DNA of 64,000 nucleotides from Candidatus Firestoneibacteriota bacterium (GCA_903861835.1 CAIOVX010000091.1:47610-111609); one strand, 5' to 3'. Shown: positions 31,937 to 55,556, counted from the stretch's first letter. The notes: a model not told the origin generated them from the sequence alone. Numbers and translations: made by a program.

Positions 31937-31983
31937 TACGTTTTACGTTATAAACGTTATGAACGTTAAGAACGTTAAGAACG
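31937..31983 (-). promoter_or_regulatory. Intercistronic TAACGTT repeat array (about 5 units with 9-nt period) between the rfbA-like stop and the rfbC start
   Basis: Sense strand reads cgttcTTAACGTTcTTAACGTTcaTAACGTTtaTAACGTaaAACGTaagg, followed by a GGAGG RBS. Confidence 0.45.
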
Positions 31984-31990
31984 ACCAATT

Positions 31991-32722
31991 TTATTTTTTA
32001 TTCGCGCCGTAGAGTGAAACCATCTTATTCGTCTCAAACCAGCCCTCTATCGACGAACCTGCATCCGCCCACCACCCGTCAAGTATATCATAACCCAGCT
32101 TGCCTTTCTTGAGGTACATATTATTAAGGTCTGTAATTTCCAACTCGCCCCTCTGAGAGGGTTTGAGCTTCCTTATCAACTTAAAGGCCTCGGCGTCGTA
32201 CATATAGATGCCCACTACAGCAAAATTTGACGGCGGGTTCTTCGGTTTTTCTATTATGCGTTTAATTTTATCGCCTGAGAACTCCGGCACGCCGTAATGC
32301 CTCGGTTCGCTTACTTCCTTAAGCAAAATCATTCCGCCGCTCTTCATTTTCGCGAACTTCTCAACGGATTTTTTAATGCTCCCGCCGATGATATTGTCTC
32401 CCAGAATAACAACCACCTTATCATTCTTCGCGAAATGCTCGCAGAGCGAAAGCGCTTCGGCTATGCCTCCCTCGCCTTTCTGGTACGCGTAGTTCATGTG
32501 CTTGAGCCCAAAATCCTTGCCGTTTCCGAGAAGCCGCAGGAAATCACCGGCGTTGTTCCCGCCGGTTACTACCATTATATCGTCTATCCCGGCGTTGACC
32601 AGCGTCTGCATCGGGTAAAATATCATCGGCTTGTCATAGACAGGCAGCAGATGCTTATTTGTGATATTTGTGAGCGGGGAAAGCCTTGTGCCGAGCCCTC
32701 CTGCGAGTATTATTCCTTTCAT
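31991..32722 (-). CDS. rfbA: Glucose-1-phosphate thymidylyltransferase-like sugar nucleotidyltransferase (short form)
   Basis: MKGIILAGGLGTRLSPLT. The start is refined to the ATG at 32722. It is the first gene of the rfbACBD operon. Confidence 0.7.
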   Translation of the reverse strand: MKGIILAGGLGTRLSPLTNITNKHLLPVYDKPMIFYPMQTLVNAGIDDIMVVTGGNNAGDFLRLLGNGKDFGLKHMNYAYQKGEGGIAEALSLCEHFAKNDKVVVILGDNIIGGSIKKSVEKFAKMKSGGMILLKEVSEPRHYGVPEFSGDKIKRIIEKPKNPPSNFAVVGIYMYDAEAFKLIRKLKPSQRGELEITDLNNMYLKKGKLGYDILDGWWADAGSSIEGWFETNKMVSLYGANKK

Positions 32723-32744
32723 AACTGCCTCCGGGTTGCTGATT

Positions 32745-34424
32745 TTACTTTGAAATAACCGTCTTGCTCCTGTATTTCTGCTCGCCTTCAGGCACAAACC
32801 ACTTCTCTGAATTATAGCCGATGCCTATGGGCGCGGGTTTTATCCCGTGAATTCTCCTGTCAACTGCCGTCAGCGCGTCCGGAACAAAAAGGAAAGCGTA
32901 AGGCTGGTCTTCCGCTACGAGCCGGTGGATGCGGTTGTAGATTTCTTTTCTTTTATTTAGGTCAAAAGTCTCCTGCCCTTCAAGCAGCAGACGGTCAACT
33001 TCCGGGTTAGAGTAAGAGACAAAGTTATACTCCCCTTCTTTAATCTTTGAGGAATGAAATATGTCGTAGCAGTCGGGATCCAGCGTCAGGCTCCAGCCCA
33101 GCACTACCGCGTCAAACTTCTTTTTATCAACATACTCGTTTATAAACACCGGCCACGCAAGGACGCGGAGCTCAACTTTTATGCCGAGTTTTTTTAATTG
33201 CGACTGAATGATGGTCGCGACGCTCTCCCTGGCCTTGTTTCCCTGATTTGTCATCAGCATGAAGCTGAACTTTTGTCCGTTTTTTTCCAGAAGTCCGTCT
33301 TTCCCTGGCAGCCAGCCCGCCTCTTTCAAAAGTTTCCTTGAAAGTTCAAGGTCGTAGGAATACCCCTTAACAGACTTGTCGCACGCCCAGGAGTCAGGCG
33401 GAAAAGGTCCCGTCGCCTCGCTGCCGTACCCGAAAAGAATAAAATCAATTATTTCTTTTCTGTTTATGGCGTGTGAAACCGCTTGCCTTACTTTTTTATC
33501 GGAGAAAAATGGAGACTTGTTGTTAAACCCTAAATAAGTGTAAGCAAAAGCCCTGTATTTGTACTTGTTGAACTTTGCTTCAAAATCAGGAGCCGCGGCC
33601 TGTTTCTTAAACATATCCGGGGTCAAGGCCATTGAATCTATCCCGCCGGATTTCAGCTCCATAAACTGCACAGACTGATCAGGTATTATCCTGTAGACAT
33701 AATTATCTATGAAAGCCCTGCCGTCAAAATACGCAGGAAAAGACGAAAGCGTGAGTTCCCTCTGCCGTTTCCAGTCCTTAAAAATATACGGCCCGGTGCC
33801 GACCGGAGAATAATTAGCTTTCGCGGTATTCACATCAAGGCCCTGATAAATATGTTTCGGCAGTATACCCATCCCCCATCTTTCAAGAGCCGGGGCAAAG
33901 GGTTTGCCGTAAACAACCCTGACCGTGTAGGCGTCTAAAACCTCGAACTTTTTCACCAGTTCAAAAGCGCTTTTGTAAGGGCTCTTTGTCAGCGGGTCAA
34001 TAAGTTTCTTGAAAGTGAACTCTACATCCGCGGCGGTAAAAGGCGCGCCGTCCTGCCACTGCACATTCTTCCTGAGCTTGAAGGTTATCACCAGACCGTC
34101 TTTTGAAACTGTCCAGGATTCCGCGAGGTCTCCCGTGAGCTTCAAGTCCTTATCGTACTTAACCAGTCCGTTGTAGACTCTCTGAATAATGTCATTGCTG
34201 GCTGAATCCCCGGAAAGTATGGGATTCAATATTGAAGCGTCTCCGATGGAGGCGTCAACAAAGGTGTCGCCATAAGCCGGCTTTTCTGCTCCAAAAAAAG
34301 AAGGCGCACCGCTTCCTTCACGGTACGCCTTCATGTCTTTATTAAGCTTTAAAATCAGAGCTGCAAATCCCGCGACAAGTATCACCGCGGCAGCCGTCAG
34401 GACTATGGCTGTGTTTCTTTTCAT
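32745..34424 (-). CDS. ABC transporter substrate-binding protein, family 5 (OppA/DppA-like)
   Basis: N-terminal TM/signal region. SBP_bac_5 blocks LVKYDKDLKL...LAESW and WQDGAPFTAADV. 559 aa. Confidence 0.8.
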   Translation of the reverse strand: MKRNTAIVLTAAAVILVAGFAALILKLNKDMKAYREGSGAPSFFGAEKPAYGDTFVDASIGDASILNPILSGDSASNDIIQRVYNGLVKYDKDLKLTGDLAESWTVSKDGLVITFKLRKNVQWQDGAPFTAADVEFTFKKLIDPLTKSPYKSAFELVKKFEVLDAYTVRVVYGKPFAPALERWGMGILPKHIYQGLDVNTAKANYSPVGTGPYIFKDWKRQRELTLSSFPAYFDGRAFIDNYVYRIIPDQSVQFMELKSGGIDSMALTPDMFKKQAAAPDFEAKFNKYKYRAFAYTYLGFNNKSPFFSDKKVRQAVSHAINRKEIIDFILFGYGSEATGPFPPDSWACDKSVKGYSYDLELSRKLLKEAGWLPGKDGLLEKNGQKFSFMLMTNQGNKARESVATIIQSQLKKLGIKVELRVLAWPVFINEYVDKKKFDAVVLGWSLTLDPDCYDIFHSSKIKEGEYNFVSYSNPEVDRLLLEGQETFDLNKRKEIYNRIHRLVAEDQPYAFLFVPDALTAVDRRIHGIKPAPIGIGYNSEKWFVPEGEQKYRSKTVISK

Positions 34425-34430
34425 CCTGCC

Positions 34431-34856
34431 TTACTTGCCCTTCGGCGTTGACTGCGCCGGCGCTGCCGGTACAGCTGAAGGAGCAGAAGTTCCTTTCGCA
34501 GGAGCCGCAGCGGTGCCGGCCTGCTCACTCTGGGCATTCTGCTGGTTCGAAGCGCCGGGCATAGAAGCCCTTGCCTTGTCCTCAGCCGCCATTTCCCTTT
34601 GCATCGCGCCTCCGGCAGAACCCAGTTTGGTAGGCAGAGTTGCAAGAAGTATCGAGGTAAGCATAAAAGCTATCGCCAACCCGGTGGTAATCTTCCCGAG
34701 CGCCGACTGCCCGCCTGTCGCCCCGAAGAGCGCCTGGCCTGAACCTCCGCCAAAAATCGAGGAGAGGTCGCCTGCTTTGCCTGACTGCAAGAGCACTATC
34801 AAAATCAGCAGCACGCAAATCACTACATGTAGTATTGTCAATATCCCGATTATCAT
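34431..34856 (-). CDS. secG: Preprotein translocase subunit SecG (with an extended Ala/Pro-rich C-terminus)
   Basis: Two TM helices with the LLQSGKAGDLSSIFGGG SecG signature. It lies downstream of tpiA, which is conserved synteny. Confidence 0.75.
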   Translation of the reverse strand: MIIGILTILHVVICVLLILIVLLQSGKAGDLSSIFGGGSGQALFGATGGQSALGKITTGLAIAFMLTSILLATLPTKLGSAGGAMQREMAAEDKARASMPGASNQQNAQSEQAGTAAAPAKGTSAPSAVPAAPAQSTPKGK

Positions 34857-34890
34857 CTGTCCTCCGGCCGCCTGAGGCGGCTTTAAACTG

Positions 34891-35649
34891 TTACTTCTTT
34901 TCGAACTTTACTAGTTTAACGAAAGAATCGGCTTCCAGCGCAGCTCCGCCGACCAGCGCGCCGTCAATATCCGGCTCGTTCATAAGGATTGAAACATTGT
35001 CCGGCTTAACGCTGCCGCCGTACTGTATACGTACCGCGTCCGCTGTCTTCTGGCTATAGAGTTTCGAGATGAGATCCCTGATGAATTTATGGACTTCCTG
35101 CGCCTGCTCTTTACTCGCGGTCTTGCCCGTGCCGATTGCCCAGACAGGTTCGTACGCAATCACCATCTTAAGCATTTCGTCTTCGGTAAAGCCCTTGAGG
35201 CCGCCGGTAAGCTGTCTTTTTATGACTTCGTTGGTGACGTTCTTTTCTCTCTCTTCCAGTGTTTCTCCGCAACAGAGTATCGGAAGCATCTCTTCGGAGA
35301 GGACTGCCCTTATCTTCCTGTTTATCAGCTCATCAGATTCCTTAAAGATCTGCCTTCTCTCGGAATGGCCGAGGATGACATAAGTGCAGCCCGCTTCCTT
35401 CAGCATTGACGGAGAAACTTCACCCGTAAACGCGCCCTTCTTTTCAAAGTAGCAGTTCTGCGCGCCGACCTTAATGTTTGAACCCTTGAGAAACTGATAA
35501 ACAGAGTAGAGGGCGGTAAACGGAGGGCAAACAACAACCTCCACATCACTCACATCCGCAAGTTTAAAACGGAGGTCCTTTACCAACTCCAGCGACTCCG
35601 TGACGTTCTTGTTCATCTTCCAATTTCCTGCGATTATCGGCTTTCTCAT
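34891..35649 (-). CDS. tpiA: Triosephosphate isomerase
   Basis: IAGNWKMNK, ILGHSERR, and the AYEPVWAIGTGK active-site loop. Confidence 0.9.
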   Translation of the reverse strand: MRKPIIAGNWKMNKNVTESLELVKDLRFKLADVSDVEVVVCPPFTALYSVYQFLKGSNIKVGAQNCYFEKKGAFTGEVSPSMLKEAGCTYVILGHSERRQIFKESDELINRKIRAVLSEEMLPILCCGETLEEREKNVTNEVIKRQLTGGLKGFTEDEMLKMVIAYEPVWAIGTGKTASKEQAQEVHKFIRDLISKLYSQKTADAVRIQYGGSVKPDNVSILMNEPDIDGALVGGAALEADSFVKLVKFEKK

Positions 35650-36542
35650 TTAGTGTTTCTCCTTTCTACCATTTTTTTTATTTGAGCTATATGAACGGGG
35701 GTAGTCCCGCAGCATCCGCCTATAATATTCGCGCCTGCATCTATAAGTTCCTCAACCCGGGAAGCCATTATCTCAGGCGATCCGTCGTAAGTGACCACTC
35801 CGTCTTTCATGACCGGAAGCCCGGCGTTCGGTTCGGCAATAATTAACCTGTTCGTGTGTTTCTTTATCGCCCTAACAATTTCTATCATTGAATCAATACC
35901 GTAGCCGCAGTTTGCGCCGATAATATCGGCACCCGCGGCTTCCAGTTGTTTAGCCATAGTTTCTGTATCAACGCCCATAACGGTCCGAACATCGCCGTTA
36001 TTGATCTTAAAGGTCATAAGAGCCATAACCGGCAGCTTAGTTACACTCTTCGCCGCTTTCACGGCGAGCGCAGTCTCTTCTATCGCTATCATCGTCTCGA
36101 CGATAATAAAATCTGCGCCGGCTCCCGCGAGAATCTTTGCTTGCTCCGAAAAAGCCGCGAACGCCTTTTCAGCGGTCATAGTGCCGTACGGCTCTAGCAT
36201 CTCGCCGGTGGGGCCGATATCTCCGCCCACATAGACCGGACTGTTTCCCGCAGCCGTCTTCGCGTTTTTTACCCCGGCTTCGTTTATCTCCCTAAGCTTG
36301 CCGTCGAGGTTAAACTTCTCAAGTTTCAAGCGGTTCGCGCCGAACGTATTGCTGAGCACCATATCAGCGCCCGCTTCAATATATTTCTTATGTATGCCGG
36401 TGACGCTCTCCGGTTTTGTCAGATTCCAAAGCTCCGGGCATTCCCCTGCCGCTAAGCCTTCCGCCTGCAGCATGGTTCCCATAGCGCCGTCGCACAACAG
36501 TACCCTGCTCTTTATGGAATCCAGCAGGTCTTTGTTCTTCAT
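35646..36542 (-). CDS. Homocysteine S-methyltransferase-domain protein (MetH N-terminal Hcy-binding-domain type)
   Basis: LLCDGAMGTMLQ, and a C-terminal GGCCGTTP Zn-binding motif. 298 aa, standalone. Confidence 0.65.
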   Translation of the reverse strand: MKNKDLLDSIKSRVLLCDGAMGTMLQAEGLAAGECPELWNLTKPESVTGIHKKYIEAGADMVLSNTFGANRLKLEKFNLDGKLREINEAGVKNAKTAAGNSPVYVGGDIGPTGEMLEPYGTMTAEKAFAAFSEQAKILAGAGADFIIVETMIAIEETALAVKAAKSVTKLPVMALMTFKINNGDVRTVMGVDTETMAKQLEAAGADIIGANCGYGIDSMIEIVRAIKKHTNRLIIAEPNAGLPVMKDGVVTYDGSPEIMASRVEELIDAGANIIGGCCGTTPVHIAQIKKMVERRNTK

Positions 36543-37927
36543 TTTTTCTTCCTGAGTTCCTTAAGCAGTTCCGGAAGACACTGTTCAACCTGCTGCCACA
36601 TCTCCTGCTCGGAGATGCCGGTAGTCCGTCCGTTGACATACTGCTCGTCAACCCACGTCTTAATGAAAGTTACCGCGTGATGGTGCTTGTCAACTTTGCC
36701 GTCGCCAACAAGTTCCAGACGGCTGTTAAGCCAGTAGGCTATTCCCGCCACACCCGATTTATCTGTGATACCGACATCAACATGGCGCTTAAGTATTTTG
36801 TTCGTGTCAAAAATATTATAGATTTCTTCGTCTTTCATCATGCCGTCGGCGTGGATTCCTGCCTTAGTCACGTTGAAATTAGCCCCTACAAAAGGCTGGT
36901 TCTCGGGAATTTTGTATCCGATGTCCTTTTCAAAATATCTGGCGACATCCGTGATGACAGTCGTGTCCATACCGTTGTCAACTCCCCTTATACCGATATA
37001 CTCAAGCATCAACGCTTCCACCGGACTGTTGCCTGTGCGCTCGCCGATACCCATCAGAGACCCGTTCGCGGCGCAGCAGCCGTAGAACCAGGCCGTCGCG
37101 GCGTTTATCACGCCCTTGTAGAAATCATTGTGCCCGTGCCACTCAAGCCACTCGCTCGGAACACCGGCGTGCTTGTGCAGTCCGTAGCAGATGCCCTTCA
37201 CGCTTCTCGGCATTGAAGCGCCGGGATAAGTTACCCCGTAGCCGAGAGTGTCGCAAGCCCTTATCTTTACGGGAATCTTTGCCTCGCGGGCAAGTTTCAT
37301 CAGTTCCTGAGCAAAAGGAACAACAAAGCCGTAGAAATCGGCCCTTGTTATATCTTCAAAATGGCAGCGCGGAGAAATCCCGAATTCCAGCGCAGACTTC
37401 GCGATGGCAAGATAATCTTCCAGCGCCTGCTTGCGCGTTTTTTTCAATTTTAGGAAGATATGGTAATCCGAGACCGAGGTAAGAATACCCGTCTCTTTCA
37501 GCCCCATCTCTTTCACAAGTTTGAAGTCTTCCTTGACAGCGCGTATCCAGCCGGTAATTTCAGGATAGCGCAAACCGAGTTCACGGCACTTGTCAACAGC
37601 CTCGCGGTCCTTCTTCGTGTAAAGGAAGAACTCCGTCTGGCGTATCATTCCGTTCTTGCCTGAAAGCTGGCTTAACATCTTGTACAGGTCAACTATCTGC
37701 TTAACGCTGAAAGGCGGCAAGCTCTGCTGACCGTCCCGAAAGGTTGTATCTGTGATCCAGATATCTTCGGGCGGTTCCATTGGGACTATTCTGTGGTTAA
37801 AAGGAACCTTCGGCACGTCGCCATAGGAAAAGATATTTCTGTAGAGGTTTGGGGTCTCCACATCCTGCAGGTCGTACTTATAGTCGTCCTGCTCTAACGT
37901 CCGTTTTTCCTTATTATATCTAAGCAT
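36539..37927 (-). CDS. HMGL-like 2-isopropylmalate / homocitrate / Re-citrate synthase family protein (no LeuA regulatory domain)
   Basis: DRE-TIM barrel motifs ITDTTFRDGQQS, HGHNDF and GIGERTGNSPVEAL. The whole ORF is 462 aa with no C-terminal LeuA-dimer domain. Confidence 0.55.
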   Translation of the reverse strand: MLRYNKEKRTLEQDDYKYDLQDVETPNLYRNIFSYGDVPKVPFNHRIVPMEPPEDIWITDTTFRDGQQSLPPFSVKQIVDLYKMLSQLSGKNGMIRQTEFFLYTKKDREAVDKCRELGLRYPEITGWIRAVKEDFKLVKEMGLKETGILTSVSDYHIFLKLKKTRKQALEDYLAIAKSALEFGISPRCHFEDITRADFYGFVVPFAQELMKLAREAKIPVKIRACDTLGYGVTYPGASMPRSVKGICYGLHKHAGVPSEWLEWHGHNDFYKGVINAATAWFYGCCAANGSLMGIGERTGNSPVEALMLEYIGIRGVDNGMDTTVITDVARYFEKDIGYKIPENQPFVGANFNVTKAGIHADGMMKDEEIYNIFDTNKILKRHVDVGITDKSGVAGIAYWLNSRLELVGDGKVDKHHHAVTFIKTWVDEQYVNGRTTGISEQEMWQQVEQCLPELLKELRKKK

Positions 37928-38220
37928 ACGGCTCCTTGCGCTAGAATGGGTTTACCCTATAAAAGGGTTACCGATTTGCTATATTATCAAATTTAGGAGG
38001 GGTTTTAAAGCACTTTTTGAGTTGGAAAAGCGCATATACCAAATTCGCAACAATCTGCACCAAAGACAAGTTCTAAATGCTAAATTCTAAACAGAAGCAA
38101 CACGATTCCGCGGTTATTGCTATTTGCCTTATTGCTTTTTGTTTAAAATTTAGTGCTTAGAGCCGCTCCGCGGATTGCTAATTACTAATTAAAGACTCAA
38201 AGGTCTGAAGCGCATCGGTC

Positions 38221-38440
38221 ATCTGTCCTCCGTCTTCAGTCTTCTGTCTTCCGTCTTCTGTCTTCAGTCCTCCAGTCATTTAAGCCCTTAAGCATCTAAC
38301 CATCTAACCATCTAACCATCTAACCATCCAACCATCCAACCATCCAACCTTCCAAACATCCAACCTTCCAACCCTCTGACCTTCCGTCCTCAGTCCTCAG
38401 TCCTCTGTCTTCTGTCCTCCGCTATACTGCGCATCATTAC
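38221..38440. repeat. Composite tandem-repeat element, copy 1: a 7-mer array (tcYgtcY), then cccttaagcatc, then an 8-mer array (ccatcYaa / ccNtccaa), then a second 7-mer array
   Basis: Direct tandem 7-nt and 8-nt units are visible in the sequence. It is one of 3 copies in 6.4 kb and lies in the 5' region of the HMGL-like gene. Confidence 0.8.
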
Positions 38441-38492
38441 TGCCTTACTGAGCATCCGAGCCTCTGACCCGCTGAGCCTCACCTCTCCGCCG

Positions 38493-39590: not shown

Positions 39591-39600
39591 TCAGCTCCGG

Positions 39601-39785
39601 GATATAGTTAAGACCTTAAGCTTCTGCCCTTCTGTCTTCCGTCTTCAGTCTTCTTCCTCCATCCACGCAGGCCCTTAACCATCTAACCATCCAACCATCC
39701 AACCCTCCAACCCTCCAACCCTCTAACCTTCCAACCATCCAACCCTCCAACCCTCCAACCCTCCAACCCTCTAACCTTCCAACCC
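39601..39785. repeat. Composite tandem-repeat element, copy 2: a 7-mer array, the core catccacgcaggcccttaaccatc, and an 8-mer array (ccaaccct / ccaaccat, about 14 units)
   Basis: It fills the whole spacer between the heparinase-like stop at 39786 and the BNR gene start at 39590. Confidence 0.8.
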
Positions 39786-41789
39786 TCATTTCTCAAACCT
39801 TCCCGCCACCACCTCATTCTTCATGTCACTCTTAACGCCGTTCACGAGGATATACCCGCCGGTATCTCCTTCAAAGAGCACCTCGTTGCCGTCAATACTC
39901 ACGCCTATGCCCTTGCCTTTCTGTATAAGCACCGGTTTTTTCTCTCCTGCGGTCGACAGCACATTCAGGAATACATCCTCGGCCTTTCCGACGCCGGGCT
40001 TTATCTCCACCCTCCACAAGTCTGCCTCGGGAGTCAGCTTGCTTTCCTTTTCCGGATAATTCTTGCCGCCGTAAGTGTACCCTTCCACCTTGTTTATAAC
40101 CGACTTTTCAGGCAGCAGCGCGTAGCAGTTCAGCGTTCCTTCTCCGTTCTTTACCGCGAATTCAGCGTTCTTTATTTCCGGCTCATTCTTGCAATGCAGC
40201 AGCCAGGTTTTCGCGTAATCCTTGTTCAGCGCCTCAACCCTGTCATAGATCACGAAGATTCCGGGGCGCAAAAACACTATCCGGCGTATATACTTGCTTA
40301 CTTTCCTGGAACTGTAGGCCTTTGTGCAGTCTCCCGTGAGATACATAAAGCCCGGGGTGTTTTCATAAGCGGTTATCTTGCCGCGGGAGAAAGTTTCCTT
40401 TTTGGCTTCCCATTCAGGCAGCGTCCCGACCACAGTCTCCCATTTCTTGGCCTGGCCGCCGTCATTCTCAAGTTCCTTCACGCCGCGGTAATTCTTCCAT
40501 TCCTCTCCCGGCATTAATACGAGCATGCAGTTGTGAGCGACAGTGCGCGTCAGCCAGTTTACCGCGTGAGGAGAACTCCAGGCGATATATTCCCCGCTCT
40601 CGGTCGCCAGCTGTTCTTTGCAGAAAATCTCAAAGTTCCCGGCCTCAAAATGCTGGTGCTGGTTCCAGTAGTCGGAACATTCAAACCTGAACCAGGTTGC
40701 GTCATCACCCCAACCGTCCCTTGCGTAGACCTTCCCGATGTCCTTCGTAATGTGAGCCAGAGGGAAGTCAGACAGGCCTTTGGGGGCGTCAGCAGGCCCT
40801 CCGTACAGAAAATCAAAAGCCCTCGACATCAGGTTAGAACCCGCGCGGTTCTTGCCCGCCGTGTATTTTGAAAGTTCCGAGCCCCCGAAGTATCTCGCGA
40901 TAACATTTCTCATATGGCGCGGGTATTCCCTGGCGCCGCTGTAGATATTTGCCCCGTCGCCTTCCATAGGGTAATTCTCGGCGCCGTAATCGGCGAATCC
41001 CGGATACGGCTGGAGCAGTTCGAAGGCAAGACGCTGATAAAAGAATTTTTGGCATTTCTTGAACCCGTCATAACCCTCTGCCATCCGCGCGAGTTCAAGC
41101 GCCTGTGTCAGGTGCCAGACAGAATGCCTCTGGTACCAGCCGCACTCCGTCCAGCCCCCTCCCGCCCCGTATTTATTGAGGACGGGAATGAGCTTGCTCT
41201 CGTAAAGCTCTAAAATGGCTTTGTCCCTGAAAGTTTTTGCTTTCGGGTTGTCATTCCAGGTCGCGTAGGCAATCCTAAGATAGGTAAGCATTTTTGACAT
41301 CGTAGAATTGTGAAACGCATTCTCGTCGTCGCGGTAGGAATCGTAGGTGGCATTCATCCAGTCAATTATTTTTTTGCGGTTTGAGTCTCCCAGCTCGTTA
41401 TAAAAAAAGTCAAAGACAAAAGCCGCGTTCGTAAGTTCTATCCAGGTATCCTGATGTTTATTGGAAGGACCTTTGTTTACAAGGTTCATCGTTTCGGCAA
41501 TAGTTTTATCTATTTTAGACTTGTCCAACCCCTCTACTGCCTGAGTGATACAGCGGAATTCAAGCGCGCTCGCGTTCCGGATCTCGCCGTAAACCCGCGG
41601 GTTCTCTTTAGCGAGAGCTTTAAGACGCTCTTTTGAGCCATAAAGGATTGGGTGCTTCCCGAGATCCTTAGACCACGCACCTGTCTCCACAACCGGATTT
41701 CCGGCCGGAATTTCCTGGGCAAAGAGCGGTCCGCTGAGAATACAGGCAAACGCGAGAAATTTTAGGACACTCTTAGATTTAAAGAGCAT
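39786..41789 (-). CDS. Heparinase II/III-like polysaccharide lyase family protein
   Basis: Signal peptide. It has an alpha/alpha-toroid N-terminal domain (WYQRHSVWHL...) and a beta-sandwich C-terminus containing the NQHQHFEAGNFEIF motif. 667 aa. Confidence 0.6.
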   Translation of the reverse strand: MLFKSKSVLKFLAFACILSGPLFAQEIPAGNPVVETGAWSKDLGKHPILYGSKERLKALAKENPRVYGEIRNASALEFRCITQAVEGLDKSKIDKTIAETMNLVNKGPSNKHQDTWIELTNAAFVFDFFYNELGDSNRKKIIDWMNATYDSYRDDENAFHNSTMSKMLTYLRIAYATWNDNPKAKTFRDKAILELYESKLIPVLNKYGAGGGWTECGWYQRHSVWHLTQALELARMAEGYDGFKKCQKFFYQRLAFELLQPYPGFADYGAENYPMEGDGANIYSGAREYPRHMRNVIARYFGGSELSKYTAGKNRAGSNLMSRAFDFLYGGPADAPKGLSDFPLAHITKDIGKVYARDGWGDDATWFRFECSDYWNQHQHFEAGNFEIFCKEQLATESGEYIAWSSPHAVNWLTRTVAHNCMLVLMPGEEWKNYRGVKELENDGGQAKKWETVVGTLPEWEAKKETFSRGKITAYENTPGFMYLTGDCTKAYSSRKVSKYIRRIVFLRPGIFVIYDRVEALNKDYAKTWLLHCKNEPEIKNAEFAVKNGEGTLNCYALLPEKSVINKVEGYTYGGKNYPEKESKLTPEADLWRVEIKPGVGKAEDVFLNVLSTAGEKKPVLIQKGKGIGVSIDGNEVLFEGDTGGYILVNGVKSDMKNEVVAGRFEK

Positions 41790-41987
41790 TGAGCCTCCTG
41801 TTTACTATTTACTGTCAAATCTGAACGGCACCGCAGACAGGCCTTCCGAACGGCAAAAAGGTTCCTCCGGTAATCCGCTGGTCACTGCGCCCGCAGTTGT
41901 ACTTTAGGCCTTGTTGCTTGATACAACAATGATACTGGAATGGTCAGCGTCTGCAGCAAAAATAATTTCGGTGTGCAAGCGAAGTCC

Positions 41988-44317: not shown

Positions 44318-44395
44318 CCTTATTCTCCCGGCGGGACTGCCCCGCTTAATGAATTTCTTTACGCACAAAAGTATCTTTCTTTAATACTTCCGGAA

Positions 44396-44620
44396 ACACA
44401 CCTTCTGTCCTCCACCTTACTGCGCATCCGCGCATCACTTCTGACTTCTGACTTCAGTCTTCCGTCCTTTGTCTTCCGTATTCAGGCCTCTTCATCCATC
44501 CACGCAGGCTCTTAATCATCCAAACATCCAACCTTCCAACCAGCCGCCATTCTGTCTTCTTGCCTCATCCCTTGCCGGCCCTTAAACATCCAACCCTCCA
44601 ACCCTCTGAACCTCCAAATC
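44396..44620. repeat. Composite tandem-repeat element, copy 3: cttactgcgcatc, a 7-mer array, the core catccatccacgcaggctcttaatcatc, and an 8-mer array
   Basis: It shares the core and both arrays with copies 1 and 2. It lies in the 5' region of the operon at 43730-44317 and 41988. Confidence 0.75.
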
Positions 44621-44996
44621 ATTGTTTCAGCAAATCCCCCATTTCCTTTTGCATTTGCGCGTTGAATTCACCGGCGATACCCACCATAAACTTGATGGAG
44701 ATTATGAGCAGAACAATTCCTATCCAAAACGAGATCCAGACCCAGAGTTTCGCTTTCTTTGAACTGACTTTAGCCTTTTCATGCAAACCAGCATTGAAGA
44801 ATGCATTTACCTTCAGGCCATATATAAAGGAAACAATCCCGGTTGGAATCAGAGAAAGTATCATGAGTACGGAGAGCCAGATGTAGGTTTTGGGTTTTAC
44901 AGGTTTTACGGTAAGATTCAGGAGGTCGCTTCCGCAGTACCGGCACTTGATGGCTTCATCCTGGATCTCTTCAGCGCAATACGGGCACTTCTTCAT
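44619..44996 (-). CDS. Zinc-ribbon membrane protein, hypothetical
   Basis: N-terminal CPYCx12CRYC zinc ribbon, then two TM helices. Confidence 0.4.
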
Positions 44997-45127
44997 TTGG
45001 GCTCCAGAGTTGAAACGGGTCTCCTATTATTGTACCACAATTTCCTCTGGCCGGAAAACTGCGGCAAACATTTATCCTGCAACACATATAGGCGCCCGCG
45101 CGTTTCAGCAAAAGAATCCTCTTCCGT

Positions 45128-46189: not shown

Positions 46190-46253
46190 ATGGCCTTCTC
46201 CCGGGGACGGTATCGCCTCCCGCGTGTATTATTCAAACCTTTATGGATTTATG

Positions 46254-48035: not shown

Positions 48036-48096
48036 AACGCCTCCGAAACAAAAAGAAAGTAATTTTTCGCCTGTGCCGCTTCCGGGACCCGCCGCA

Positions 48097-49473: not shown

Positions 49474-49671
49474 AGCACTCCTTTCTTCACGCGTATTTCC
49501 TTCGACTGCAATAAAAGACTGCGGCCTGAGGGCCGGAGTCTTTTATTTCGGGCCGTGCATAGGAATAAATTAACTTGCCTCTGCAGCCAGTATATTTTAT
49601 AATTTGACCGGTGTCAATTTAGCGCTGTTGTATAAAATCATCCGAGAATTGCATTTTTTCACGGGGTTAAA

Positions 49672-50550
49672 ATGGCAAGAAATCAGGATTTGGATTTAGG
49701 CCTTATTAACAGGCCGCAATATTCTCTCTCCGCAGAGAACCCTGTGCGGCTCAGCCTGACCGGCCACAAAGAGAAGATAACAGCGCGTTTCGATATGCAT
49801 TTTGAGATAGAGCTCGGCATCCTGGTCTCCGGAAGAATGAAAAGATTTTACCAGAACCACGAAATGGACTTGAAGCCCGGAGATGTTTGGGCCTGCGGGA
49901 TGTGGGAGCCGCACGGATTCAGCGTTAAGAAACTGCCCTGCAAGGTGATAGTGTTTACAGTCTACCCGCAACTGATCCTCGGCGCTAATTTCGAGGAACT
50001 CCCTGACTTCAAGCCAATTTCTTTCTTCACTGCGCCTCCTAAAAGAAGGCTCAGGCTGAACAAGGAAGAGCGGATTAAAGCACTGGGGCTGGGTAAACGC
50101 CTCGAGAATGCCTATAATTGCAAAGGCATGGAAAGGACCGCCCTTCTTCGTGTATGCCTGTATGATCTTCTGCTCATCATGTACGCGGCCAGGTCCAAAA
50201 GAAAGCAGAACATTGAGACCGCAGATCCCGGCTCAATAACTCTAATAAACGGCGCCATACAACTGGTATTGGATTCAAAGAAGCTTGTTGCCGAAGAGAA
50301 AGCCGCGAGAAGATGCGGATTAAGCAAAAACAGCTTTAATGCACTCTTCAAAAGAACCACAGGCTTGAGTTTTTATAAGTTTGCGCTGAAGTACAGGCTG
50401 AGCAATGTCGCCGGCCGCCTGCTCAGGACCAACGACCCGTTGAAAGCCATCGCGGCGGACTGGGGCTTCTTTGACGCGAGCCATTTACACCGGCTCTTCG
50501 TGCAGAACTACGGCTGTTCCCCGGGAGAGTACAAGAAAATACATTCCTGA
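49672..50550 (+). CDS. AraC-family transcriptional regulator (cupin sensor domain plus HTH)
   Basis: C-terminal AraC HTH signature (SHLHRLFVQNYGCSPGEY). It is divergent from the GH4 gene. Confidence 0.8.
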   Translation: MARNQDLDLGLINRPQYSLSAENPVRLSLTGHKEKITARFDMHFEIELGILVSGRMKRFYQNHEMDLKPGDVWACGMWEPHGFSVKKLPCKVIVFTVYPQLILGANFEELPDFKPISFFTAPPKRRLRLNKEERIKALGLGKRLENAYNCKGMERTALLRVCLYDLLLIMYAARSKRKQNIETADPGSITLINGAIQLVLDSKKLVAEEKAARRCGLSKNSFNALFKRTTGLSFYKFALKYRLSNVAGRLLRTNDPLKAIAADWGFFDASHLHRLFVQNYGCSPGEYKKIHS

Positions 50551-50903
50551 TAGGCGGCTCTAACAGGTCTCCTTGCTGAAATCATGGAGGTTGTTCCGCT
50601 GACGTCTTCAGGAATACTGATTATTTCCCTTACCTTAATTTCTTCTTTTTTTTCAGTGGCTTCTCGGGCGCGTTCTTGTGAATATCAAAAAGCGGCTGCA
50701 TGCTCGCAAAGCTGATGAAATCCTGCGCAGGTTTCGGCTCAACCTTTGTTTTACTAACCTTCTTCTTCATAGCGCACCGCTCCTATGAGAGTTCCCGATT
50801 CTTACAGGTATTATATAACTATATTTCAAATATGCAAAGAAGCCTTCTTTCGGAGCTTCAAACACCATATAACAGGTTACTGTTCAGCGCCACAACCCCG
50901 GAG

Positions 50904-51803
50904 CTAGAATGTAGCTGATATCCCTGCCGTCGGAGCAACGCCAAGCTTCAAACCGACAATGCCGGTGTCTTTCTCGGCGAGAAAGATATAGAGCTCCCCG
51001 CCGATGTTAAGATTGACATTCGAAGTAACGGCTAATTTCAGACCCGCGCCGAGGTCAATCGCGGCTGTGACCGTCTTTCCCTCCAACCCGGCATAGATAT
51101 ACGAGGGCAGAGTGGATACAATGCTCGTCTTGAAATCCTGGTAGAACGCGCCTACGCCGCCCGATACATAGAACATATCCGTGAGGTGATGGTAATAGTC
51201 CAGTTTTACGAGCACAACTGTGGAACTGACAGACTCAGCTGCCGTGTTCAAACCGCTTGTGTAGGAGTTTATCTGCTTGTTAGTCGTAAACGAGCCGATA
51301 GTGACCTTTATGCCCGGGTGAAATTGCGTGAATTCGCCGAAGGAGATATCCGCCTGCCAGCCGTAGCCGTCAAAAACTATGTTGCTATTCCAGGGGGCAA
51401 ACGCTCCGGAGGTAAAGAGCGCCGTGCCGTAAACGGAACTGAAAGAATAGTAGCCGTAGGAGAATCCCGCGCCGATTTTCTTGAAGGCGTCCAGGTTCAG
51501 GGGTTGTTCATTGCCGGGAAGAGCGGGAGCGTCACCTGCGGATGAAGACTGGTAATCATCCGTATCAATTTCTTCAAACTTAATCTCGTTCCCGTACTCA
51601 TCAAAGTATTTTTTGACCTTGCGGGTGATCTCTTTCTTTACTTCTACAGGAGGCTTGCCCTGTTCTTGTATCACCATCGTCCGGAATACTCCCGTCCCCT
51701 CTTCCACCCAGACCGCTTTGATATGCCTGTGGTGCGCGTCAAGCTGGGAAGCGGCAAAAAGCACCAACAACGCGGCCGAAACGGACAGAATGTTTAGTTT
51801 CAT
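50904..51803 (-). CDS. Outer-membrane beta-barrel protein, hypothetical
   Basis: Signal peptide, alternating amphipathic beta-strands, and a C-terminal aromatic residue (...ISATF). Confidence 0.45.
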   Translation of the reverse strand: MKLNILSVSAALLVLFAASQLDAHHRHIKAVWVEEGTGVFRTMVIQEQGKPPVEVKKEITRKVKKYFDEYGNEIKFEEIDTDDYQSSSAGDAPALPGNEQPLNLDAFKKIGAGFSYGYYSFSSVYGTALFTSGAFAPWNSNIVFDGYGWQADISFGEFTQFHPGIKVTIGSFTTNKQINSYTSGLNTAAESVSSTVVLVKLDYYHHLTDMFYVSGGVGAFYQDFKTSIVSTLPSYIYAGLEGKTVTAAIDLGAGLKLAVTSNVNLNIGGELYIFLAEKDTGIVGLKLGVAPTAGISATF

Positions 51804-51820
51804 TATTCCTCCGGGAAACT

Positions 51821-52420
51821 TTAGGCCTTTCCAAAGTATGCAATAATTCCGGTCAATATGAATCTTACGGCAATAGCCGCAAGCAGGATGTACATAACCT
51901 TCGCGAACACTTTTGAGCCGAGGTCACCGATAATCTTGTAGATTGGAGCGGATAAACGGAGCGTAGCCCAGAGCAGGAGCGAGTTAATGGCGATGATGAG
52001 CGCGGCGATAAACCACGGCTGGCGCTGAAATATCAGGAGTGAGGTGACGATGGAGCCCGGCCCGACCAGAAGCGGAAAGGCCAACGGAACTGCGGAGAGC
52101 TCTGCCGTGGAAACGCCGTGATGCTCGTTCTTTCCCTGATTCTTAATGATGCTGATGACGGATATGCAGAGAAGGACAATTCCACCGGCTATTTTGAGGT
52201 CGTTGAGCGTGATTTTAAACACTTTCTCAAGTATTACCTGGCCAAAAAATGAGAAGGCTAACAGTATTGCGGCGCCGGTCAGTGCCGTCGTTGTCGCGGC
52301 ATGATGCCTCGTCTTTGAATCGTGGTTCTTGGTTATCTCAAGAAAGAATGGTATACCCGAAATGGGGTTTACGATTGCGAAAAGTGTTACTGTATCTTCG
52401 ATTATGCTTCTCCAGTCCAT
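51821..52420 (-). CDS. MarC-family (UPF0056) integral membrane protein
   Basis: 199 aa with 6 TM helices and the NPISGIPFFL MarC motif. Confidence 0.75.
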   Translation of the reverse strand: MDWRSIIEDTVTLFAIVNPISGIPFFLEITKNHDSKTRHHAATTTALTGAAILLAFSFFGQVILEKVFKITLNDLKIAGGIVLLCISVISIIKNQGKNEHHGVSTAELSAVPLAFPLLVGPGSIVTSLLIFQRQPWFIAALIIAINSLLLWATLRLSAPIYKIIGDLGSKVFAKVMYILLAAIAVRFILTGIIAYFGKA

Positions 52421-52527
52421 TATGACTCCTTTTGAAATGTGTTAATTCATTCTATCAAACCCGAGGGGTTTTTCAAGTGGAAATACCCTGTTATCTTCGT
52501 TATAATGGGACTTCCTCAGGAGGAAAA

Positions 52528-53616
52528 ATGGCATATAACATAACATTGATAAAAGGCGACGGAATAGGGCCGGAACTCGCGCAGGCGGCAAAGATGTGCG
52601 TGGAAGCGACCGGCGTAAAGGTAGTCTGGGATGAGGTTGAAGCAGGAATAGATGTGATGGCAAAAGAGGGCACTCCCCTCCCGGAAAGAACCATAGAATC
52701 CGTCCGTAAAAACAAGCTGGCGCTCAAGGCGCCTGTTACCACGCCGGTCGGCACGGGATTTCGAAGCGTGAATGTGGCGCTCAGGCAGGTGCTCGGCCTT
52801 TACGCTTGCGTGCGCCCCTGTAAATCCTACGAGGGCGTTCGTTCCAAGTACAGGAATATTGACCTCGTTATAGTGCGCGAGAATACCGAGGACCTTTACG
52901 CCGGAATTGAATTCAAACAGGGCGAAGAAAAGACGAAGAAACTGATTGACGAGATTTCGGCTCTCGGCGGCAAGAAGATACTGCCGGATTCCGGCATCAG
53001 CATCAAACCTATTTCAATCCAGGGCACCGAAAAAATAGTTACTTACGCTTTTGAATACGCGCGCAAGCATAAAAGGAAGAAGGTCAGCGCCGTTCACAAA
53101 GCTAATATCATGAAGTTTACCGACGGGCTCTTTCTGGAAGTTGCCCGCAATGTTGCGAAGAAATACACTGATATAGAGTTTAATGATGTCATCGTCGACA
53201 ATATGTGCATGCAGCTGGTGCAAAAACCGGAACTCTATGATGTTCTTGTCCTTCCCAACCTCTACGGCGATATTATTTCAGATCTTTGCGCGGGGCTTGT
53301 AGGCGGTCTTGGCGTGGCGCCGGGAGCGAATATCGGAGCTGATTCGGCTGTCTTTGAAGCAACCCACGGCAGCGCTCCAAAATACAAGGGCTTAAACAAG
53401 GTAAATCCTACCGCGCTCATACTCTCTTCCGTGCTTATGCTTGAACATATGGGAGAACTTGAAGCGGCGCGCAAGCTGGAAGCCGCGGTCGCAGCCGTAA
53501 TAAAAGAAGGCAAGCGCGTGACCTATGATATGAAACCGGACAGGAACGATCCGACGGCGGTTGGGACCAGGGAGATGGCTGAGGAAATAGCGATAAAGGC
53601 AAATTCTAAATTCTAA
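52528..53616 (+). CDS. icd: Isocitrate dehydrogenase (NAD-dependent type, isocitrate/isopropylmalate dehydrogenase family)
   Basis: [30 protein letters not shown], and the NLYGDIISD metal-binding motif. The start is refined to the ATG at 52528, which has a GGAGGAAAA RBS. Confidence 0.75.
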
Positions 53617-53639
53617 ATTCGAAACCCAAAGGAGTTGTT

Positions 53640-54569
53640 ATGAAGAGGGCTAAGGTAGCTGTTATAGGCGCAGGGCAGGTAGGCGGCATAGTAGCGTTTC
53701 AGATTGCTCAGAAAGAGCTCGCCGATGTGGTATTGGTTGACATCGTAGAAGGAATGCCTCAGGGAAAAGCCCTGGATATGAGCCAGACAGCGGGAGTTGA
53801 GCATTTTGACGCAAAGGTAACCGGCACGAACAATTATGCCGATATAAAAGAGAGCGACATCGTAGTCATCACAGCCGGTGTTGCCAGGAAACCCGGAATG
53901 ACTCGCGAAGACCTCCTTAAGATCAACACGGATATAGTAAAAAAAGCCGCTGAGTCGGTAAAACTCTACGCTCCGGAAGCTTTTATAATATCTGTAACTA
54001 ACCCGCTGGATATTATGACCCAGCTGGTCTATAAAACTACCGGCTTCAAGAAGAATAAAGTGCTTGGAATGGCCGGAGTTCTTGATTCCGCGCGATTTGC
54101 ATTATTTATTGCCGAGGAACTCAAGGTTTCAATAAAAGACGTCTTTCCGATGCTGCTCGGCAGCCACGGAGACACGATGGTTCCTCTCCCCCGCTATACT
54201 ACGGTCTCCGGTATCCCACTTACCGAACTTCTTCCCGCTGAAAAGATAGCGAAGCTTTCGGAAAGGGCAAGGAACGGCGGTGCTGAAATCGTGGGGCTGC
54301 TTAAGACCGGAAGCGCGTATTTTGCCCCTGGCAGCTCGGCAGTCGCGATGGTTGAAAGCATTCTTAAGGACCAAAAGCGCATCCTCCCATCCTGTGTATA
54401 CCTTGAAGGTGAGTACGGAATAAAGGGCGTCTTCATCGGGGTACCGGTAAAGATTGGCAAGAACGGCGTTGAGCAAATTATTGAACTTAAACTGAATGCC
54501 GAAGAACTCGCGCTGCTGAAAAAGTCGGCGGCAGCGGTGGCAAAGGGAGTTGCGGAGCTGGGAATATAA
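53640..54569 (+). CDS. mdh: Malate dehydrogenase (LDH-like)
   Basis: KVAVIGAGQVGG, ITAGVARKPGMTR, the catalytic His region and SAYFAPGSSA. Confidence 0.9.
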   Translation: MKRAKVAVIGAGQVGGIVAFQIAQKELADVVLVDIVEGMPQGKALDMSQTAGVEHFDAKVTGTNNYADIKESDIVVITAGVARKPGMTREDLLKINTDIVKKAAESVKLYAPEAFIISVTNPLDIMTQLVYKTTGFKKNKVLGMAGVLDSARFALFIAEELKVSIKDVFPMLLGSHGDTMVPLPRYTTVSGIPLTELLPAEKIAKLSERARNGGAEIVGLLKTGSAYFAPGSSAVAMVESILKDQKRILPSCVYLEGEYGIKGVFIGVPVKIGKNGVEQIIELKLNAEELALLKKSAAAVAKGVAELGI

Positions 54570-54585
54570 CTTCGTTTGTTTTCAC

Positions 54586-54660
54586 GGATTACGAAATGCA
54601 ATTACGCAGATTACACCATTATCTAATCTCCGTAATCTGTTTTCCAAATCTGCGTAATCA
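54586..54660 (+). promoter_or_regulatory. Extended GATTA/TAATC inverted array upstream of fumA (GGATTACGAAATGCAATTACGCAGATTACAcc...cTAATCtccgTAATCtgttttccaaATCTGCGTAATca)
   Basis: Same core and same overall order (GATTA arm, then TAATC arm, then gene) as the alaS site. The arms AATTACGCAGATTAC and AATCTGCGTAATCA are near-perfect reverse complements. Confidence 0.5.
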
Positions 54661-54690
54661 AGAGATCCTTTTTTTCCACAAGAGGCAATT

Positions 54691-55533
54691 ATGATCACAT
54701 CCAAACAAATATCGTCTGCGGTAAGCGGCCTCTGCATTGATGCCAATCTGAAACTGCGGCCTGATGTCGTCAAAGCTCTCAAGGATTCCCTGAGGAAAGA
54801 AACCTCTTTGAAAAGCAGGAATCTCCTTTCAATCCTCCTCGAGAACTGCGCCATCGCAAAAAGCGAAAAAATACCACTCTGCCAGGATACGGGAATGACC
54901 GTGGTTTTCGCTGAGGTCGGGCAGGACGCAAGGATACAGGGAGATCTAACGACGGCGATAAATAAAGGAGTCGCGACCGGCTATAAAGAAGGTTTCCTTC
55001 GAAAATCAATAGTGGCGGACCCTCTCCTCAGGAAAAACACCGGCACAAATACCCCTGCGATGATCTATTATGACATCGTCCCGGGCAAGAAACTAAAACT
55101 TACAGTGCTCCCTAAGGGCTTTGGCTCTGAAAATAAGTCAAAACTTTATATGCTCAACCCGACGGCGGGATATGACGCTGTCGTGAACTCAATACTCAAG
55201 GCGATCAAGGAAGCAGGGCCTGACGCCTGCCCTCCCTATGTGGTTGGTGTCGGAATAGGCGGAGACGCGGCGAAGGCCTGTTACCTCGCGAAGAAAGCGC
55301 TGACTAAACCTGTAACTTTCCTTTCGGATAAAGCTCATTTCAGGAAGCTGGCGAAAGAATTGCTCGCGAAAGGAAACAAACTGAATATCGGCCCGCTCGG
55401 GGCCGGAGGCAAGACTACTCTCCTCGGCGTAAATATACTTTCTATGGCCACACATATCGCTGGCTTACCGGTGGCGGTGAATATAAGCTGTCATTCTTTG
55501 CGCTCCGCGCATAAAAACTTGCAAAGTTCGTAA
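54691..55533 (+). CDS. fumA: Fe-S hydro-lyase alpha subunit (class I fumarate hydratase / tartrate dehydratase alpha)
   Basis: CQDTGM motif, 280 aa. It is followed by the beta subunit. Confidence 0.85.
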   Translation: MITSKQISSAVSGLCIDANLKLRPDVVKALKDSLRKETSLKSRNLLSILLENCAIAKSEKIPLCQDTGMTVVFAEVGQDARIQGDLTTAINKGVATGYKEGFLRKSIVADPLLRKNTGTNTPAMIYYDIVPGKKLKLTVLPKGFGSENKSKLYMLNPTAGYDAVVNSILKAIKEAGPDACPPYVVGVGIGGDAAKACYLAKKALTKPVTFLSDKAHFRKLAKELLAKGNKLNIGPLGAGGKTTLLGVNILSMATHIAGLPVAVNISCHSLRSAHKNLQSS

Positions 55534-55556
55534 CGTTCTTAACGTTTGTAACGTAA
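55529..55556 (+). promoter_or_regulatory. Intercistronic TAACGTT repeat array (3 units with 9-nt period) between fumA and fumB; the first unit contains the fumA stop codon
   Basis: cgTAACGTTctTAACGTTtgTAACGTaaacc, 18 nt upstream of the fumB ATG. Same unit and same orientation as the array at 31937-31983. Confidence 0.45.

Follow-up and report, generated by a model that had tools for sequence, protein, structure and literature searches.

Arrays of a strand-polar nonamer beginning at stop codons in Candidatus Firestonebacteria and several other bacterial phyla

What does one short repeat do in the spacers of two unrelated operons, where it occupies almost the entire junction and keeps the same orientation to transcription? 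The question is raised by a stretch of 64,000 nucleotides (nt) from a Candidatus Firestoneibacteriota bacterium (GCA_903861835.1 CAIOVX010000091.1:47610-111609; hereafter the window, with positions counted from its first letter), in which a first, sequence-only reading had noticed TAACGTT repeated every 9 nt between rfbA and rfbC and between fumA and fumB, and had proposed a control element shared by these two operons, for example an array of RNA-binding-protein sites or an internal operator. The repeats are real. They are members of a large dispersed family of extragenic nonamer arrays present in several phyla, whose arrays begin at or within a few bases of the upstream stop codon, on the sense strand, with the TAA of the unit often serving as the stop itself. 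In other words, the element is a dispersed repeat that behaves like REP or STRR elements, and not a dedicated regulator of rfb or fum genes.

The nature of the repeated unit emerges from the window itself. TAACGTT has 5 copies in the 64 kb, none of them outside the two arrays, and the spaced word AACGTT-N3-AACGTT is found 3 times where 0.01 occurrences are expected. Tandem Repeats Finder (TRF) calls period-9 arrays at 31945-31983, 55526-55554 and 57530-57567, the last of which is of the TAAGGTT type, follows the pyruvate kinase gene pyk and had escaped the sequence-only reading, where only two arrays were counted (Table 1). On the mRNA strand, array 1 reads GTTCTTAAC GTTCTTAAC GTTCATAAC GTTTATAAC GTAAAAC GTAAGG, that is, four full and two truncated units where five had been counted from the five ACGTT cores; array 2 reads GTTCGTAAC GTTCTTAAC GTTTGTAAC GTAA, and array 3 reads GTTTTTAAG GTTCATAAG GTTTATAAA GTTTATAAG GTAAG. 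Because array 3 carries G or A where arrays 1 and 2 carry C, the invariant core is GTT..TAA at period 9 and not the AACGTT palindrome: the proposed period holds, and the palindrome has to be given up both as the repeat core and as a functional core, since A or G stands at that place in array 3, in the arrays of a sister species and in most of the family. The conserved repeat is GTT-Y-R-TAA-N with a period of 9, closed by a truncated GTAA, and an array comprises 3-5 such imperfect nonamers. The corresponding pattern, (GTTNNTAAN)x3 followed by GTAA, matches the window exactly three times against no match in 100 shuffles, which agrees with the proposal that the two operon arrays are one shared element, in the same orientation to transcription, and not the product of chance.

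All three window arrays lie on the sense strand of the upstream gene. Array 1 sets in 8 nt past the rfbA TAA and is followed by the rfbC Shine-Dalgarno sequence GGAGG; array 2 sets in at the fumA stop, whose TAA (55531-55533) is that of its first unit, just as had been described; array 3 sets in 2 nt past the pyk TAA. Arrays 1 and 2 end about 16-17 nt short of the rfbC and fumB start codons. With regard to composition, the tetranucleotide ACGT is strongly depleted in the window, with 142 +/- 11 occurrences expected and 54 present, 8 of these inside the arrays; AACGTT occurs 5 times against 15.7 +/- 3.9 expected, every copy within the two C-type arrays, which are thus dense clusters of a word otherwise avoided in the window. 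Other six-nucleotide palindromes are rare as well (GCTAGC 0, TAGCTA 0, TCTAGA 1, CACGTG 1), and restriction-modification pressure could account for this rarity.

How far the element extends beyond the window was explored with two pattern scans, whose counts are lower bounds and no census. A search for GTTNNTAA repeated three times in a row, with each species represented by one genome, returned at least 118 loci, and a metagenome scan in which the closing GTAA was also required returned at least 119. Further copies at gene junctions elsewhere, whose absence would, according to the sequence-only reading, have weakened its case, thus number in the hundreds. Nearly all of the genome loci belong to Bacteroidota, Ignavibacteriota, Patescibacteria and Candidatus Firestonebacteria; among the matches listed, the Candidatus Firestonebacteria, which are the lineage of the window and rich in the family, account for 9 loci in 5 assemblies and the cyanobacteria for a single one (L109). 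Carriers include cultured Bacteroidota, namely Butyricimonas synergistica DSM 23225, B. muris GBG-M4 and Plebeiibacterium marinum D04. When the window was compared by BLAST with the 118 listed genome loci, the array itself was the only part that matched, with no genes in common. Since many unrelated genes in several phyla precede the element, it is not specific to the rfb and fum operons, and the notion of a control element particular to these two operons must be abandoned. A full-text literature search with the nonamer in either orientation matched unrelated primers only, and the family is apparently undescribed so far.

Within the family, positions 4-5 of the unit are TA, CA, TG or CG in most listed prokaryote arrays, and position 9 is A more often than G and G more often than C; 113 of the 133 listed genome arrays are heterogeneous at positions 4-5. 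In Patescibacteria the arrays often come as inverted pairs able to form long hairpins, and Firestonebacteria-like metagenome contigs hold many arrays each, often mixed with other repeat modules. Viral contigs served as a control. There, matches to the nonamer pattern are mostly other repeats, such as the GTTAATAAT coding repeats of giant viruses or perfect repeats, and show a broad spectrum at positions 4-5. A phage origin of the nonamer was discarded, as the viral matches are mostly unrelated AT-rich coding or perfect repeats and few of them are family-like.

The position of the arrays with respect to genes is as regular as their unit. In particular, 121 of the 133 listed genome arrays are intergenic, as are all arrays in the Firestonebacteria sequence examined. 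Where a gene lies upstream on the same strand, its stop is at a median distance of 6 nt, and at no more than 23 nt in 28 of 33 cases, and the next gene is at a median of 126 nt. Gene calls in the fetched loci are simple longest-open-reading-frame calls; with these, an open reading frame (ORF) of at least 100 codons ending between -25 and +7 nt of the array's 5' end was found for 37 of 97 listed genome arrays, and for 8 of 97 when the test was mirrored to the antisense side (p = 1e-6). The identical test on independent listed metagenome arrays gave 60 of 106 against 5 of 106 (p = 1.6e-17), and nonamer families defined by TRF abut a stop in sense 68 times and in antisense twice. Moreover, the stop and the unit TAA share the same phase in 18 of the 60 stop-abutting arrays (p = 6e-5) and the same frame in 27 (p = 0.04). 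On the downstream side of the same 60 arrays, a same-strand ORF starts within 200 nt in 38 cases and within 23 nt in 12, an inverted array comes next in 14 and a strong hairpin in 6.

Convergent gene pairs tell transcription apart from replication. In four loci (L048, L075, L095 and L116) convergent genes are separated by a pair of arrays that point towards each other, no more than about 200 nt apart; in L367, a metagenome copy of the L116 region in which both genes are visible, each array abuts the stop of its own gene, and the two arrays of L116 have a shared terminator between them. Because facing arrays between convergent genes each abut their own stop, orientation follows the transcription of the adjacent gene and not the replication strand, which is thereby ruled out as its cause. 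Taken together, the polarity statistics favour an element that acts on the transcript, or is selected through it.

That the arrays are transcribed follows from their surroundings. Array 3 precedes a strong terminator hairpin (about 57575-57610, overlapping the tail that follows the array; minimum free energy -31.3 kcal/mol, z = -5.2), and at the two operon junctions no promoter-like or terminator-like site was found, so that the arrays belong to transcripts, where they form either an intercistronic spacer or, ahead of the terminator hairpin, the first part of a 3' untranslated region (UTR). The array RNA is an A/U-rich single strand without a stable fold: none of the three arrays folds better than its shuffles (Table 1), the value of -2.2 for array 1 stemming from its AACGUU palindromes, and a structured-RNA reading was rejected on this ground. 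No Rfam family matched the whole window at the gathering threshold; around arrays 2 and 3, at E<=10, weak terminator-driven matches alone appeared, including a sub-threshold PyrR, and a scan for tRNA and tmRNA gave no hit. Some likenesses were noted by eye and set aside, namely of some units to the 16S rRNA 3' end, and a likeness to the RNase E consensus; the same applies to complementarities of G-type units to the 16S 3' end (anti-Shine-Dalgarno) and of CA-type units to start-codon regions.

The arrays also do not carry the signature of recent slippage. Specifically, adjacent units are identical at positions 4-5 with a frequency of 0.25 in listed metagenome arrays, against 0.22 at random, and of 0.36 against 0.20 in listed genome arrays, whereas control tandem repeats from viral contigs reach 0.75 against 0.10; uniformity at these positions is seen in only 4 of 106 listed metagenome arrays. 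Position 9 tends to match within one array (0.66 against 0.33). The resemblance between adjacent units at positions 4-5 thus does not exceed that between random ones, and nothing points to recent slippage or duplication.

Comparison of orthologous junctions reveals how the arrays change over short evolutionary distances. An independent assembly of the same species (L119, 99.98% identity) has arrays identical to those of the window. At the fumA-fumB junction, the window has three C-type units; L122 (FumB 88% identical) has the same array, but its first TAA is CAA and fumA ends three codons on, at the in-frame TAA of the next unit; the species represented by L120 and L126 (FumB 87%, RfbC 91%) has five A/G-type units; and more distant Firestonebacteria are without array, with an 8-nt spacer (L123) or a 4-nt overlap of the genes (L124, L248 and L249). 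Because different array units supply the stop codon, FumA differs in length among close relatives, with 280 amino acids in the window (stop region 55526-55533), 283 in L122 (6043-6059) and 277 in L120 (9932-9939). At rfbA-rfbC, the four C-type and two truncated units of the window correspond to a G-type array with tail plus one leftover C-type unit in the L120/L126 species, and to no array in L124 and L248. AACGTT is absent from both junctions in this sister species, where both arrays are of A/G type. Behind pyk there are four units in the window, three in L122, three in the L120/L126 species, three in L124 and none in L123, L248 and L249. The arrays are, in short, lineage-specific additions, which were gained and lost and whose copy number and C, G or A type changed at the same junction. 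As to whether related genomes keep the array at the same junctions, at fumA-fumB it is kept in L119 and L122 and is missing from L123, L124, L248 and L249.

The spacer between pyk and SASA, made up of array, tail and terminator, is 92-100% identical across three species, while the flanking coding DNA is 70-85% identical, which points to purifying selection or recombination. In another Firestonebacteria assembly (L116), an unrelated flavoprotein gene is followed by an array with tail that is 90% identical over 51 nt to that of pyk. As an observation on the region at large, window positions 53600-59200 compared with L120 and L122 form an identity mosaic, in which most of the region is 70-85% identical in all pairs, mdh is about 100% identical between L120 and L122, and 55519-55746 is 98-100% identical between the window and L122; such a mosaic indicates recent recombination among the three lineages. 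In one assembly of the sister species, pyruvate kinase is called as two ORFs of 274 and 190 amino acids (L121, 10543-11954), a frameshift or an assembly error being possible.

The genes beside the arrays are collected in Table 1 with the arrays themselves. Their identities rest on Pfam hits precomputed for these genes or for their orthologues, with which the names rfbA, rfbC, fumA and fumB given by the sequence-only reading agree. The likely start of rfbA is the ATG at 32722, giving 243 amino acids and matching its orthologues. The 17 nt that separate array 2 from the fumB ATG contain no obvious Shine-Dalgarno sequence. The named FumB and RfbC homologues are from Candidatus Firestonebacteria and are 65-82% identical to the window proteins.

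Table 1. Nonamer arrays of the window and the features next to them
Feature	Coordinates	Strand	Location or Pfam family	Remark
Array 1 (C-type)	31982..31934	-	rfbA-rfbC spacer	fold z = -2.2, weak
Array 2 (C-type)	55526-55556	+	fumA-fumB spacer	fold z = +0.3
Array 3 (G/A-type)	57530-57570	+	pyk 3' UTR	fold z = -0.3
Tail CGCAAACGCAAAAC and bidirectional terminator hairpin	57571..57610	+	after array 3	
rfbA-like glucose-1-phosphate thymidylyltransferase	31991..32722	-	PF00483 NTP_transferase	upstream of array 1
rfbC-like dTDP-4-dehydrorhamnose 3,5-epimerase	31462..31917	-	PF00908 dTDP_sugar_isom	downstream of array 1
fumA, class I fumarate hydratase alpha subunit	54691..55533	+	PF05681 Fumerase	stop within array 2
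fumB, fumarate hydratase beta subunit	55574..56092	+	PF05683 Fumerase_C	downstream of array 2
pyk, pyruvate kinase	56115..57527	+	PF00224 PK, PF02887	upstream of array 3

Given that both strand and position are tied to the transcript of the adjacent gene and to its stop, the arrays most likely matter, or are filtered, at the level of RNA or translation. Tentatively, we would read the array as a multivalent platform of single-stranded RNA, with the terminating ribosome on one side of it and, on the other, the start codon or terminator that comes next. Candidate binders would be a general single-stranded-RNA-binding protein (of the S1, cold-shock, RRM or KH type) or the small (30S) ribosomal subunit, and the stability of the mRNA 3' end or de novo initiation on the next cistron might be affected as a result. 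A wider claim can be formulated, in which (GUU-Y-R-UAA-R)n would be a conserved, stop-anchored cis-acting RNA signal across Bacteroidota, Ignavibacteriota, Patescibacteria and Firestonebacteria, read by a conserved single-stranded-RNA-binding protein or by the post-termination ribosome and setting 3'-end stability or re-initiation; in this full form it appears rather unlikely. To our knowledge, among these four phyla at least the Bacteroidota lack Hfq, ProQ and CsrA. Several observations weigh against the platform. Between 40 and 60% of the listed arrays have no abutting long ORF, true antisense placements occur, and some arrays are remote from any gene. The search patterns fixed GTT and TAA, and the conservation of these six bases is partly by construction. 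The fumA-fumB and rfbA-rfbC junctions are without array in other Firestonebacteria, so that the array is dispensable for fumAB and rfbAC in those relatives, and where intra-operon arrays are present they are labile, the sister species differing in type and unit number. Other, unrelated short motifs fill similar positions in the same genomes, some of them swapped at orthologous spacers, a picture as compatible with some generic mobile or repeat-generating process as with a specific binder. Finally, recombination could explain the identity of the pyk 3' UTR, since tracts of 98-100% identity occur elsewhere in the mosaic of that locus.

The same lability lends itself to another explanation, ranked nearly as likely as the RNA platform: a selfish or neutral repeat of the REP/REPIN, STRR or MITE kind, without function for the host, which would spread by some mechanism such as insertion at TAA, gene conversion or gain and loss of units and survive only where it is harmless, right after stops, its polarity reflecting the insertion mechanism or the orientation tolerated in transcripts. 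Orthologous junctions do vary in presence and copies (3 against 4 units at pyk, 3 against 5 at fumA-fumB); both intra-operon arrays are of C type in the window species and of G/A type in its sister; other repeat families have been replaced in concert (GATTACG-type by CACCGAT-type, at mdh-fumA and recX-alaS); near-identical copies of array plus tail stand behind unrelated genes; intergenic regions are mosaics of repeat modules; the stop is often in phase with, or supplied by, the TAA of a unit, as if insertion targeted or regenerated TAA; and no link to gene function is apparent. Less easily reconciled with a selfish origin are the recurrence of one nonamer, with the same constrained positions, in very distant phyla, the lack of excess similarity between adjacent units, a local polarity that is strict even for facing arrays of convergent genes, and a pyk 3' UTR more conserved than the coding DNA around it; neither a transposase nor terminal inverted repeats accompany the window arrays, with no search aimed at RAYT having been made.

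The close relation to stop codons could instead mean that the arrays safeguard termination and insulate cistrons, with a UAA-purine stop every 9 nt in one frame and a second frame closed by GUAA halting ribosomes that read through or slip, and with the downstream cistron freshly initiated on an unstructured A/U-rich leader. Here the phase and frame preferences given above would count in favour, together with the fumA stop being a unit TAA and the in-frame TAA of the next unit being used in L122 after the change of TAA to CAA, the mostly purine base after TAA (position 9), the 12 of 60 stop-abutting arrays that end at most 23 nt from the next start codon, and the absence of a Shine-Dalgarno sequence between array 2 and fumB. 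We consider this explanation improbable, because 33 of the 60 arrays, including window arrays 1 and 3, are out of frame with the stop, one extra stop would suffice where 3-16 units are superfluous, relatives cope with overlapping fumA and fumB, and arrays that are antisense or far from ORFs go unexplained; as a general rule, backup in-frame stops were dismissed on the weakness of the frame preference and on two of the three window arrays being out of frame. More improbable still is a protein-binding array at the DNA level, with the repeats acting as an internal operator, as a site of the nucleoid or partition type, or as clustered restriction-modification sites at the AACGTT palindromes. It would draw on the palindromic nature of AACGTT, on the confinement of this word to two arrays and the depletion of ACGT described above, and on the pyrimidine-purine step at positions 4-5, which belongs to a dinucleotide class known for DNA flexibility. 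Nevertheless, array 3 and most family members carry A or G and hence lack the palindrome, AACGTT is missing from both junctions of the sister species, many other six-nucleotide palindromes are depleted too, which makes the rarity of AACGTT unspecific, and strand and placement are tied to the stop and the gene direction, which a double-stranded DNA site would not need. The internal operator in particular, one of the two suggestions of the sequence-only reading, is made unlikely by this placement, by the lack of promoter-like sites nearby and by the lack of dyad symmetry in the nonamer family. The other suggestion, an array of sites for an RNA-binding protein, may still reasonably be proposed.

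The nonamers are not the only short repeats in these genomes. In 1.8 Mb of fetched prokaryotic loci, TRF at three or more copies reported 282 rows of period 7 and 79 rows of period 8. In the window, long arrays of other units follow minus-strand stops directly at 38218-38419, 39629-39787 and 44437-44617, their sense units being GGTTGGAG / GTTGGATG (8 nt, up to 14 copies) and TGAAGAC / TGAGGAC (7 nt), and one of them begins at the TGA of the gene at 39786-41789. GCGCAGAT-type units take the place of the part next to the stop in the sister species (L126), whose distal part is the same as in the window; a G[CT]TGGATG array is present in the Bacteroidales loci L022 and L058 too. Downstream of four genes lie repeats of the GATTACGCAGATTAGAAAAGAGATTA type, called GATTACG-type above (about 3430-3510, 14640-14720, 29040-29130, with TRF at 29070-29110, and 54585-54660), which form REPIN-like inverted pairs at mdh-fumA and recX-alaS. 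In sister species (L120/L122 and L126) these spacers carry GATGACACCGAT / ATCGGTG, the CACCGAT-type, in an unchanged layout; since this holds for both orthologous spacers, separate loci have undergone the change of motif in concert.

Still other combinations are seen farther away. In L248, the icd-mdh and opp-rfbA spacers (8007-8180 and 1186-1351) hold no nonamers and carry heptamer and octamer arrays of CGATTGA, ACAATTG / TAAATCG and TCAATTG, arranged as inverted pairs around two G+C-rich hairpins, a MITE-like layout with terminal inverted repeats built of short-repeat arrays. In Firestonebacteria-like contigs (L021, L270, L280, L325, L365 and L366) modules recur beside C-type arrays, namely CTACGTCCGGCATAGCA(G/A)AATAA upstream of the array, GTAAGCCGCACTTCGTGCGTCTTGTTCTGTAAGGAAGG downstream and CCTTTGGATTAAGCTA before some arrays. 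GTTAAAA / GTTGAAA heptamer arrays (L107, L117 and others) abut stops in sense 4 times and in antisense never, often directly before nonamers, to which this heptamer may be related through shortening. Among stop-abutting arrays other than nonamers, G exceeds C on the sense strand in 62 cases against 25; a rule of sense-strand C-poverty for all repeats was not retained, as coding strands are G-skewed anyway and C-type nonamers are not C-poor.

Short intergenic tandem repeats of bacteria, such as the LSSR, the cyanobacterial heptamers and TAACTGA, have been catalogued for decades without their function or partner being established. The nonamer family offers clean handles in this respect: one unit in distant phyla, a strand rule, anchoring at stops, a defined GTAA end and neighbouring units that are unlike each other. 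In addition, its carriers among cultured Bacteroidota make the choice between selfish DNA and RNA signal directly testable. If functional, the arrays would point to a so far overlooked layer of post-transcriptional control, in phyla where such control is poorly understood, and, were the conserved RNA signal true, a new and widespread class of post-transcriptional element; if selfish, they would represent a new kind of extragenic repeat with a spreading mechanism aimed at gene ends. For annotation, the arrays matter in either case, as they can provide the stop codon and alter C-termini, as seen for the three lengths of FumA.

Among known systems, the array is easily told apart from an intrinsic terminator, as there is no hairpin in the arrays and the pyk terminator is a separate element downstream of array 3, and from operators and iterons, as no promoter-like site accompanies it, strand polarity is strict and most members lack the palindrome. 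The arrays read by TRAP (GAG/UAG, 9-11 times) and HutP (UAG repeats), systems of the sort envisaged by the sequence-only reading, are 5'-leader arrays of triplets with a period of 5-7 nt that work as terminator/antiterminator switches in few operons. They share with the nonamers a periodic short motif in single-stranded RNA with variable spacers, its reading by a multimeric protein being known for TRAP and HutP; unlike these and PyrR-type systems, the nonamers follow the stops of many genes, form no alternative structure and belong to no Rfam family. REP, BIME and REPIN elements, in turn, are imperfect hairpin palindromes, lineage-specific, with secondary effects on mRNA stability and translation near stops. 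Like them, the nonamer arrays are extragenic and dispersed in many copies over 3' UTRs and intercistronic operon spacers, with species-specific families swapped at orthologous spacers and mosaics with other modules; in contrast to REP, the window arrays are direct repeats without significant fold (Table 1), and their unit is common to several phyla.

Closer in form are the direct repeats. The LSSR are described as tandem units of 5-11 nt with near-identical neighbours arising by replication slippage (Mrazek 2007; summarised in PMC4679880). LSSR, cyanobacterial heptamers (STRR) and nonamers alike have units of 5-11 nt above chance, mostly non-coding and at many loci per genome; the window arrays are head-to-tail repeats of this size (period 9, 3-4 full units), their length changes by whole units (4 against 3 at pyk, 3 against 5 at fumA-fumB), and several listed metagenome contigs hold more than one array. 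Unlike the LSSR, with their slippage-like similarity of neighbours, the nonamers show no excess of it at positions 4-5 and have a defined polarity and a defined GTAA end. For heptamer repeats of Nostoc, reporter expression was found to be affected and no binding partner was found.

A further close parallel is given by the TAACTGA heptamer direct repeats of Beggiatoaceae, Cyanobacteria and five Bacteroidetes, for which S1, Csp or CsrA-type factors were proposed, without tests, as readers (MacGregor 2015, PMC4679880). The nonamer is distinct from them in several ways. TAACTGA repeats have a period of 7, and GTTYRTAAN, with its period of 9, is not a TAACTGA unit; TAACTGA units are mostly identical, whereas nonamers vary at positions 4-5 from one unit to the next; the two families have their main carriers in different phyla; and in the best-studied genome TAACTGA lies just upstream of start codons, whereas the nonamers are anchored at the upstream stop. 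Of the 60 stop-abutting arrays, 12 end within 23 nt of a same-strand start, and window arrays 1 and 2 end 16-17 nt before one. The two families also have features in common: both are short, imperfect direct repeats (TAACTGA in sets of 2 to tens of copies), nearly all intergenic, on the sense strand of the adjacent gene and patchily distributed over distant phyla including Bacteroidetes, and both show indels of whole units between relatives, orthologous spacers free of repeats and mixed short repeats alongside.

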